Below, piece after piece: positions 26,088 to 28,250 of a DNA stretch of 64,000 nt. Under the pieces are notes generated by a model. That model was given only the letters and a program-made list of their open reading frames with translations. It made no database searches and was not told the origin of the DNA. A program made the translations under genes and the position numbers. Position 1 is the stretch's first letter, and each line of letters opens with the position of its first letter. Location of the stretch: NCBI RefSeq assembly GCF_003334765.1, contig NZ_QOWT01000013.1, one strand, 5' to 3'. This DNA is from Escherichia coli. GTDB lineage: Bacteria; Pseudomonadota; Gammaproteobacteria; Enterobacterales; Enterobacteriaceae.

Positions 26088-28250
26088 ATGGCCTTTATGC
26101 TAAGTCCTTTGCTCAAACGCTATACCTGGAACAGCGCCTGGCTGTATTACGCGCGTATTTTTATTGCGCTTTGTGGAACCACAGCGTTTCCGTGGTGGCT
26201 GGGTGATGTAAAACTGACGATTCCGCTAACGCTGGGGATGGTGGCAGCGGCGCTGACCGATCTCGATGACCGACTGGCGGGACGTTTGCGTAACCTCATC
26301 ATTACGCTGTTCTGCTTTTTTATCGCCTCGGCCTCAGTAGAATTGCTGTTTCCCTGGCCCTGGCTATTTGCGATTGGCTTAACGCTCTCTACCAGCGGCT
26401 TCATTTTGCTCGGCGGTCTGGGTCAACGCTATGCAACAATTGCCTTCGGTGCATTGCTGATCGCCATTTACACTATGTTGGGAACATCACTGTATGAGCA
26501 CTGGTATCAGCAGCCGATGTATCTGCTGGCCGGTGCCGTCTGGTACAACGTCCTGACACTTATTGGTCATCTGCTGTTCCCGGTCCGCCCGCTGCAGGAC
26601 AACCTGGCGCGTTGCTATGAACAACTGGCGCGTTATCTTGAGCTCAAGTCGCGCATGTTTGATCCTGATATTGAAGATCAAAGCCATGCACCGCTGTACG
26701 ATTTGGCTCTCGCCAACGGTCTGCTGATGGCGACATTGAATCAGACGAAACTCTCGCTGCTGACCCGCTTACGTGGCGATCGTGGTCAACGGGGAACGCG
26801 TCGCACGCTGCATTATTACTTTGTCGCACAGGATATTCACGAGCGTGCCAGCTCTTCTCATATTCAGTATCAAACATTGCGTGAACATTTTCGCCACAGC
26901 GACGTGCTGTTCCGTTTTCAGCGGCTGATGTCGATGCAGGGCCAGGCGTGCCAGCAACTGTCACGCTGTATTTTGTTGCGTCAGCCTTATCAACATGATC
27001 CGCATTTTGAGCGCGCTTTTACGCATATTGATGCTGCGCTGGAGCGGATGCGCGATAACGGCGCACCCGCCGATTTACTCAAAACACTGGGATTTTTGCT
27101 GAACAATTTACGCGCCATTGATGCCCAACTGGCAACAATTGAATCAGAACAGGCCCAGGCACTACCCCATAATAATGACGAAAATGAGCTCGCTGATGAC
27201 AGCCCGCACGGGTTGAGTGATATCTGGCTGCGTCTTAGCCGTCACTTCACGCCGGAATCCGCCCTCTTCCGTCATGCGGTAAGAATGTCGCTGGTGTTGT
27301 GCTTCGGCTACGCCATCATTCAGATAACCGGAATGCATCACGGGTATTGGATCTTGCTGACAAGTTTGTTTGTCTGCCAGCCAAACTATAACGCCACGCG
27401 CCACCGCCTGAAGTTAAGGATTATTGGTACGCTGGTAGGTATCGCCATTGGCATTCCTGTGCTGTGGTTTGTGCCATCACTGGAAGGGCAGCTGGTGCTG
27501 CTGGTTATTACCGGCGTGCTCTTTTTTGCCTTCCGTAACGTGCAATACGCTCATGCAACGATGTTCATCACACTTTTGGTGCTACTGTGTTTTAACTTAC
27601 TGGGTGAAGGTTTTGAAGTAGCGTTACCTCGCGTAATCGATACGCTGATTGGTTGTGCCATTGCGTGGGCGGCAGTGAGCTACATCTGGCCTGACTGGCA
27701 GTTTCGCAATCTGCCGCGCATGCTCGAACGCGCCACAGAGGCCAACTGTCGGTATCTCGATGCCATACTGGAGCAATACCATCAGGGGCGTGATAACCGT
27801 CTGGCGTATCGTATTGCCCGCCGCGATGCACACAACCGTGATGCTGAGCTGGCGTCGGTGGTATCAAATATGTCCAGCGAGCCGAACGTTACCCCGCAAA
27901 TTCGCGAAGCCGCGTTTCGGTTGCTGTGCCTTAACCATACGTTTACCAGCTATATCTCAGCCCTCGGTGCTCACCGGGAGCAGTTAACTAATCCTGAAAT
28001 TCTGGCGTTTCTTGATGACGCAGTTTGCTATGTTGATGACGCGTTACATCATCAACCTGCTGATGAAGAACGCGTCAATGAGGCATTAGCTAGCCTGAAA
28101 CAGCGGATGCAGCAACTTGAACCACGGGCAGACAGCAAAGAACCTCTGGTCGTACAACAAGTTGGATTATTGATTGCATTACTGCCTGAGATTGGTCGTC
28201 TGCAACGCCAGATTACTCAAGTTCCGCAGGAAACTCCTGTTTCGGCGTAA
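26088..28250 (+). CDS. yccS: YccS putative inner-membrane transporter (FUSC-like)
   Basis: ORF track 26088..28250, 720 aa; alternative ATG at 26097 would give 717 aa; N- and central hydrophobic blocks. Confidence 0.85.
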   Translation: MAFMLSPLLKRYTWNSAWLYYARIFIALCGTTAFPWWLGDVKLTIPLTLGMVAAALTDLDDRLAGRLRNLIITLFCFFIASASVELLFPWPWLFAIGLTLSTSGFILLGGLGQRYATIAFGALLIAIYTMLGTSLYEHWYQQPMYLLAGAVWYNVLTLIGHLLFPVRPLQDNLARCYEQLARYLELKSRMFDPDIEDQSHAPLYDLALANGLLMATLNQTKLSLLTRLRGDRGQRGTRRTLHYYFVAQDIHERASSSHIQYQTLREHFRHSDVLFRFQRLMSMQGQACQQLSRCILLRQPYQHDPHFERAFTHIDAALERMRDNGAPADLLKTLGFLLNNLRAIDAQLATIESEQAQALPHNNDENELADDSPHGLSDIWLRLSRHFTPESALFRHAVRMSLVLCFGYAIIQITGMHHGYWILLTSLFVCQPNYNATRHRLKLRIIGTLVGIAIGIPVLWFVPSLEGQLVLLVITGVLFFAFRNVQYAHATMFITLLVLLCFNLLGEGFEVALPRVIDTLIGCAIAWAAVSYIWPDWQFRNLPRMLERATEANCRYLDAILEQYHQGRDNRLAYRIARRDAHNRDAELASVVSNMSSEPNVTPQIREAAFRLLCLNHTFTSYISALGAHREQLTNPEILAFLDDAVCYVDDALHHQPADEERVNEALASLKQRMQQLEPRADSKEPLVVQQVGLLIALLPEIGRLQRQITQVPQETPVSA

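Follow-up and report, generated by a model that had tools for sequence, protein, structure and literature searches.

The convergent genes yccS and sxy (tfoX) of Escherichia coli share their 3' ends in the window, i.e., in the whole stretch of 64,000 nucleotides analyzed here. The local gene order is helD, yccF, yccS (+), then sxy (-), followed by sulA and ompA. The open reading frame 25632..26078 on the plus strand carries the RefSeq name yccF and is the first gene of the yccF-yccS operon, which was described as the yccFS operon (Conway 2014, PMC4161252) and is also listed in supplement file 2 of Dar and Sorek (2018, PLoS Genet). The plus-strand gene yccS (26088..28250) encodes 720 residues from its first ATG and ends with the TAA stop codon 28248-28250; the curated K-12 start is located 9 nt further downstream, resulting in 717 residues. 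Its product is a putative inner-membrane transporter of the FUSC family with the Pfam matches FUSC-like (69-348), FUSC_2 (408-528) and FUSC (413-685). The minus-strand gene sxy (28213..28842) encodes the CRP-S co-activator Sxy with 209 residues, containing TfoX_N (14-106) and TfoX_C (116-194), and its TAA stop codon is read from 28215 to 28213. Both are genuine genes, as judged from the Pfam domains in each of them and from hundreds of Sxy homologues.

The two coding sequences overlap tail-to-tail at 28213..28250 by 38 bp, corresponding to 12 codons plus 2 nt per strand, stop codons included. A first-pass annotation of this sequence had placed the end of yccS at 28250 and that of sxy at 28213 and had concluded that one stretch of DNA encodes the final 12 codons of both genes, one on each strand. 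Both points are correct: the open reading frames and the RefSeq annotation agree on the ends, and in K-12 MG1655 the genes sxy (b0959, 1021138..1021767) and yccS (b0960, 1021730..1023883) show the same 38-bp overlap, which is annotated likewise in strain ER1709. The window differs from MG1655 by 1 mismatch in the 2,746 bp spanning yccS and sxy, and the overlap is identical; no sequencing difference adds a stop codon, and an earlier true stop in either gene is effectively ruled out. With a 1.2-kb query across the junction the locus was found in 5,426 of 5,426 complete E. coli genomes.

The overlap encodes Sxy residues 198-209 and the final 11 residues of YccS together with part of the preceding codon, and the codon phase is such that position 1 is opposite position 1, position 2 opposite position 3 and position 3 opposite position 2. 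The Sxy tail encoded here lies past TfoX_C, which ends at residue 194, and the YccS tail lies past the conserved motif LLPEIxRLQxQI and far past the FUSC match, which ends at residue 685. In an alignment of 20 sequences the mean column identity is 65% in the overlap compared to 79-81% in the single-coding flanks, making it the locally least conserved part although it codes on both strands. Such a pattern is typical of two dispensable tails with drifting stop codons and not of a sequence maintained for a special function. Because the overlapped bases are the least conserved in the region, the overlap sequence is under no detectable extra constraint; this says nothing, however, about antisense transcription itself. 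A small 5-bp hairpin (CAGGA-AAC-TCCTG, followed by TTTCGG) is predicted within the overlap at 28227..28239 on the plus strand. It is unlikely to act as terminator as it is too weak and located upstream of the yccS stop codon; it was neither reported by the terminator scan nor is it conserved in the alignment.

For comparison, 30 loci from other strains and species of Enterobacterales were collected, 20 from a scan of species-representative genomes for Sxy and 10 from exact look-ups of Sxy homologues. The genes sxy and yccS are arranged tail-to-tail in all 30, and the block ycbZ-matP-ompA-sulA-sxy><yccS-yccF-helD is kept wherever the flanks were available. At 27 of the 30 junctions the genes overlap by 4-47 bp, i.e., by 38-41 bp in Escherichia, 14 bp in Salmonella, 11-47 bp in Citrobacter, 35 bp in Intestinirhabdus, 44 bp in Enterobacter and Lelliottia, 20 bp in Leclercia, 4 bp in Yokenella and in the Enterobacteriaceae isolate ESL0689, and 26 bp in the Erwiniaceae Tatumella and Rosenbergiella. 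One metagenomic locus has a gap of 2 bp, and the two Yersiniaceae have a spacer, of 44 bp in Chimaeribacter and 36 bp in Yersinia ruckeri. Both Yersiniaceae spacers contain a stem-loop, that of Chimaeribacter being a perfect, GC-rich 11-bp stem. The alignment across the junction is nearly free of indels, and what varies is the position at which each frame stops. Two Citrobacter loci have recently gained a stop codon within an otherwise alignable tail, reducing the overlap down to 11 bp. None of the Escherichia loci has an earlier in-frame stop codon.

Overlaps of this kind are a regular feature of bacterial genomes. In 50 kb of the K-12 chromosome around the locus three of eight convergent gene pairs overlap, namely zapC/ycbX and yccX/tusE by 4 bp each and sxy/yccS by 38 bp, while the remaining five are separated by gaps of 31-75 bp; both 4-bp overlaps are also present in the window, at 43486..43489 and 19638..19641. 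A run-on of 12 codons to a stop codon is within expectation for an unconstrained reading frame. In a survey of 338 genomes convergent pairs made up 7% of the overlaps between well-characterized genes, and the convergent orientation, a regular minority class in such surveys, was the one most readily tolerating longer overlaps (Pallejà 2008, PMC2478687). The pair sxy/yccS belongs to the convergent overlapping protein-coding genes: the two share 3' nucleotides, both are genuine, and their orthologues end at comparable positions. It resembles the overlaps surveyed by Rogozin 2002 (cited in PMC2478687) and Pallejà 2008 as two real genes sharing their 3' ends by less than 60 bp, through reading on to the next stop codon, in an arrangement kept in relatives. 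It differs from them in nothing essential. Its 38 bp exceed the 4 bp of the common stop-on-stop overlaps, two of which occur in the window.

The overlap is also not new. Apart from its annotation in K-12 it is present in transcriptome papers: the sxy and yccFS operons were drawn as converging (Conway 2014, PMC4161252, Fig. 2 legend), in a dataset in which 276 of 370 convergent operons had complementary 3' ends with a mean overlap of 286 nt, and sxy-yccS is listed as one of 165 convergent excludons that were detected in 50% or more of 58 MG1655 transcriptomes (ExcludonFinder 2025, PMC12288877, Table 1). Our literature search found no work pairing yccS with tfoX by name.

How the two transcripts end was analyzed with a consensus terminator scan, which reported no intrinsic-terminator-like site between 28021 and 29900. 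The closest candidate on the minus strand (27887..27872) is a weak one, and finding 6 candidates overall compared to 4.3 expected is at chance level. A search against Rfam across 24000-32000 (E<=1) gave no match at the junction and only sub-threshold matches at the ompA terminator. A bidirectional intrinsic terminator, i.e., a stem-loop with A-tract and U-tract between the two stop codons, is absent. No terminator fits between the genes, and therefore each transcript must, as we infer, end inside the other gene. It had been suggested in the first-pass annotation that read-through from yccS would generate antisense RNA over the sxy 3' end. The antisense RNA is indeed unavoidable as a complete yccS mRNA spans 28213..28250; the term read-through is a misnomer, because the antisense overlap is obligatory and involves no leak. 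Likewise, a complete sxy mRNA contains the complement of the yccS end. The supplements of PMC7815308 and PMC12207403 hold no entry for yccFS, sxy or their coordinates, and those of PMC5927463 list the operon yccS-yccF only, with no 3'-end coordinates for the locus. A long hairpin within yccS (~28030-28070, GACGCGTT...AACGCGTC) was considered as a possible 3' end of the sxy mRNA and rejected because relatives outside Escherichia do not share it. The part of this hairpin that was kept by RNAalifold, TGATGATG/CATCATCA, was discarded as well as it consists of the conserved DD..HH codons, which are mutual reverse complements.

Downstream of the yccS stop codon lies another, GC-rich hairpin of 26 nt, GCTCCTGGCGGCGTGCCACCGGGAGC (28272..28297; 1,021,683..1,021,708 in MG1655), which is predicted to fold on either strand, with energies of roughly -18 to -19 kcal/mol in E. 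coli. It starts 21 nt past the yccS stop codon and is located inside sxy codons 182-191 (A-L-P-x-x-R-R-Q-E-L). On the yccS-sense strand the predicted energy is -18.6 kcal/mol in E. coli and -19 to -24 kcal/mol in most other genera. RNAalifold kept the hairpin across 20 sequences, with covariation contributing just -1.22 kcal/mol. In the sxy sense 85.5% of the cells are paired, three pairs show changes on both sides, and 0-4 of 500 shuffles matched the observed value on each of five measures. On the yccS-sense strand 92.6% of the cells are paired, and the two columns that form a C.A mismatch in 17 of the 22 sxy-sense sequences give a G.U pair. These counts are supportive but modest. The majority of the stem pairs are invariant. 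In Yokenella, where CTC is replaced by CTG and GAG by GAA, the stem is broken, and about half of it is lost in Leclercia, where another hairpin followed by TTTTTG is found inside the overlap on the yccS-sense strand; it seems to be absent from the more distant ESL0689 locus, judged from this one sequence. A repeated (REP-like) element was rejected, because only one copy of the hairpin occurs in the window as well as in E. coli genomes.

The strongest evidence that the hairpin is a real element at the nucleotide level comes from the synonymous sites of sxy, compared across nine genera in a set of 20 genes. CTC encodes Leu183 in 19 of 20 genes, while other conserved Leu codons of sxy use 2-6 synonymous codons, mostly 4-6. 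Similarly, Pro184 is CCG in 19, Arg188 CGC in 18 and Glu190 GAG in 19 of the 20 genes, whereas codon choice is free at Ala181, Arg187 and Leu191, which lie in the flanks or the loop. The summed normalized entropy of the five arm codons was matched in 1 of 100,000 degeneracy-matched draws from sxy; within their amino-acid class, no other codons of the gene have synonymous sites under stronger constraint, and the only other stretch of comparable constraint comprises codons 1-14. Dual coding does not explain this constraint, because the yccS reading frame never extends into codons 182-191 in any locus examined; the longest overlap, of 47 bp, ends at approximately sxy codon 195. Among the features described here the constrained hairpin is the only new element.

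As to its function, the hairpin may be the 3'-end stem-loop of the yccFS mRNA: it is a stable stem-loop downstream of the yccS stop codon and is followed by GCAGCTTC, lacking a U-run. On the plus strand, 28300..28500, which is yccS-sense, antisense to sxy and untranslated, is C-rich and G-poor, with a GC skew of -0.17 to -0.51 in 80-nt windows; it is a candidate Rho-utilization region by composition, which alone proves no rut site. It was shown for E. coli that Rho-dependent transcripts end at stable U-less stem-loops that block 3' exonucleases and are closely followed by rut sites (PMC6061677). In analogy, Rho-dependent termination of the yccFS transcript would occur in the C-rich region antisense to sxy, at ~28300-28500, followed by trimming with 3' exonucleases as far as the conserved U-less stem-loop (28272..28297). 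This would give a mature yccFS mRNA with complementarity to approximately the final 85 nt of the sxy ORF. Both the Rho dependence and the exact 3' end are inferred from this resemblance. The hairpin shares with the stem-loops of PMC6061677 that it is stable and GC-rich, has no U-run, follows soon after the stop codon and has a C-rich, G-poor region downstream. In contrast to these, it is located within the coding sequence of a convergent gene, where it constrains synonymous sites. The locus also resembles the bidirectional intrinsic terminators at which collision assists termination (Wang et al., 2022, bioRxiv 10.1101/2022.10.23.513370) in having a palindromic stem-loop that can form in both nascent RNAs at a convergent border; the Yersiniaceae have a hairpin of this kind in a true spacer, and Leclercia has a hairpin with TTTTTG on the yccS-sense strand. 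However, the E. coli hairpin has no flanking A- and U-tracts and is located inside sxy. It cannot serve as sxy terminator because it lies upstream of the sxy stop codon, within the gene.

Taken together, we consider it probable that this is an ordinary convergent overlap which originated from gene packing and stop-codon drift and constitutes no dedicated device, with the yccFS 3' end formed by Rho and the stem-loop as proposed above. In Enterobacteriaceae and Erwiniaceae, sxy and yccS abut tail-to-tail essentially without a spacer, and each frame overruns its final conserved residues (HEAALPxxRRQELxEW in Sxy and LLPEIxRLQxQI in YccS) into a short dispensable tail until a stop codon is reached. 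As both frames overrun to the next stop codon at abutting ends, the tails share DNA. The stop codons of both tails appear to drift, because the overlap is poorly conserved and lies outside the Pfam domains in both proteins. Against a neutral origin, the tight juxtaposition is kept through two families and could reflect selection for overlapping transcription instead of tolerance.

The latter leads to a regulatory explanation, namely that the pair acts as an excludon in which yccFS transcription over the sxy 3' end lowers sxy expression, possibly also in the reverse direction, by RNA polymerase collision or by RNase III cleavage of the duplex; this would be one cause of the very low basal Sxy level, and the layout with no spacer would be held by selection for coupling. 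We regard this as unlikely. It is consistent with the tail-to-tail arrangement with little or no spacer that is kept across Enterobacteriaceae and Erwiniaceae, and head-on polymerase collision positioned by a nascent stem-loop is a demonstrated mode of termination for convergent E. coli genes (bioRxiv 10.1101/2022.10.23.513370). The presence of sxy-yccS in the E. coli excludome of PMC12288877 also agrees with it; however, this listing weighs little and carries little functional information, because overlapping coding sequences guarantee overlapping transcripts when both genes are on and score automatically on co-expression. Overlapping 3' ends are moreover generic among convergent operons (276/370; PMC4161252), the Yersiniaceae keep a spacer with a hairpin showing that the overlap is not universal, and the overlap sequence evolves fast. 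The similarity to convergent excludons (PMC4161252, PMC12288877) is that sxy-yccS itself is drawn or listed as a converging pair with overlapping transcripts, while the defining trait of excludons, mutually exclusive expression via interference or RNase III, is hypothetical for sxy-yccS. Reciprocal-expression data for sxy and yccS were looked for in the literature and none were found, and our search returned nothing tying the Sxy level to yccFS, nor any direct support for the implication of the first-pass annotation that the overlap helps to keep Sxy tightly limited. The level of Sxy is reported to be very low in LB, and its induction was attributed to CRP-dependent auto-activation (PMC6728893).

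In a more far-reaching form of this explanation, the spacer-less layout itself would be the product of selected coupling, with every yccFS mRNA ending at the stem-loop embedded in sxy and thus forming an inherent antisense RNA against the end of sxy; polymerase collision or cleavage of the duplex would help to keep Sxy off until CRP-dependent auto-activation outruns it. To this form we give slightly less credence still. The long-lasting spacer-less layout and the stem-loop-positioned collisions at convergent E. coli genes leave a regulatory role a slim chance.

The hairpin itself, due to its folding on both strands, could equally act in the sxy mRNA instead of the yccFS mRNA. There it precedes the sxy stop codon by 60-85 nt and could be a barrier to decay or processing or make ribosomes pause. 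The sxy-sense fold of -18 kcal/mol with 85.5% of the cells paired is compatible with such a role, and so is the negative search for a convincing, conserved sxy terminator or 3' stem-loop further downstream, inside yccS. On the other hand, pairing is better on the yccS-sense strand (92.6%), where the C.A mismatch turns into G.U, and a translated hairpin is repeatedly unwound by ribosomes, making a role in the sxy mRNA improbable in our view. That sxy transcripts might be trimmed back to the hairpin, lose their stop codon in this way and give rise to an unstable Sxy carrying the tmRNA tag is pure speculation.

An annotation or sequencing artefact, with one stop codon truly located earlier and the overlap untranslated, is hardly credible: convergent overlaps are sometimes misannotated 3' extensions (PMC2478687), but the sequence is the same in K-12, the locus occurs in all 5,426 complete E. 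coli genomes, open frames overlap at 27 of 30 related loci with no earlier in-frame stop in any Escherichia locus, and stop codons, unlike start codons, allow no choice in annotation, so that sequence comparison effectively refutes it.

The shared 3' end of sxy and yccS as it stands adds nothing to the K-12 annotation or to the published transcript maps. Only as a control point for Sxy would the overlap be of consequence; in this case, a transcriptional antagonism with yccFS would offer a concrete and testable handle on the natural signal inducing Sxy in E. coli. With the hairpin in sxy codons 182-191, a neighbor's probable 3'-end stem-loop is written into the coding sequence of a convergent gene, which is of modest general interest, and it provides a small, testable lead on how RNA 3' ends are defined in a gene pair lacking a spacer.

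The coding sequence of sxy contains a GC-rich hairpin of 26 nt at window positions 28272..28297, covering sxy codons 182-191. When 20 sxy genes from nine genera were compared, the codons CTC, CCG, CGC and GAG, which form the hairpin arms, were found to be near-invariant at their synonymous sites and the adjacent codons to be variable. The segment is probably an RNA structural element, and with it the sxy coding sequence carries a candidate 3'-end stem-loop of yccFS. In Leclercia sp. J807, the stop codon of yccS falls within a 9-bp GC-rich hairpin, directly after which the yccS-sense strand reads TTTTTG (approximately 4088..4125 of the collected locus L027), and this arrangement places an intrinsic-terminator-like element for yccS inside the coding tail of sxy.

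Synonymous variation is strongly suppressed in one other part of sxy, codons 1-14 (window 28801..28842). The codons TAT6, ATC9, TAT10 and GAA14 show no variation in 20 of 20 sequences, and AAA2 is invariant in all 16 of the 16 sequences that have Lys at codon 2. This suppression suggests that a constraint acts on the region of translation initiation or on an mRNA structure at the 5' end of sxy. In H. influenzae, 5' mRNA structure of sxy controls translation.

Tail-to-tail overlaps are locally common, as shown by two further convergent pairs of the window, zapC/ycbX and yccX/tusE, the coding sequences of which overlap by 4 bp each (43486..43489 and 19638..19641, respectively). Both pairs are contained in the ExcludonFinder list of convergent excludons of E. 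coli MG1655 (PMC12288877). Directly past ompA, sub-threshold Rfam matches are clustered on both strands at 30963..31057, with the families STnc370, Leu_leader, istR and RsmY represented by their 3' ends. A strong terminator hairpin between the convergent genes ompA and matP is most likely the source of these matches, and this origin is favored over real STnc370, Leu_leader, istR or RsmY RNAs.

A 276-bp low-coverage contig (NZ_VLXZ01000190.1) of an Alkalicoccobacillus porphyridii (Bacillota) assembly shows 99% protein-level identity to E. coli sxy and is almost certainly an E. coli contamination of that assembly. In the search of E. coli genomes, sxy/yccS junction matches were found on plasmid-labelled records (4/5,428) and some genomes had two junction copies, a pattern indicative of wrongly assigned replicons or of a segment duplication.

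The junction itself differs between relatives. An in-frame TAA at codon ~201 removes approximately 8 residues from the Sxy proteins of Citrobacter sp. Awk 4 and NCU1, and the DNA past this TAA remains alignable in frame to other species. The TAA is a recently gained stop and reduces the overlap to 11 bp. In Yersiniaceae, a sxy-yccS spacer of 36-44 bp is retained (locus positions 4128..4171 in Chimaeribacter and 4131..4166 in Yersinia ruckeri). The spacer contains a stem-loop, and in Chimaeribacter its GC stem is perfectly paired over 11 bp. This layout looks like a conventional bidirectional terminator that would have been lost in Enterobacteriaceae.
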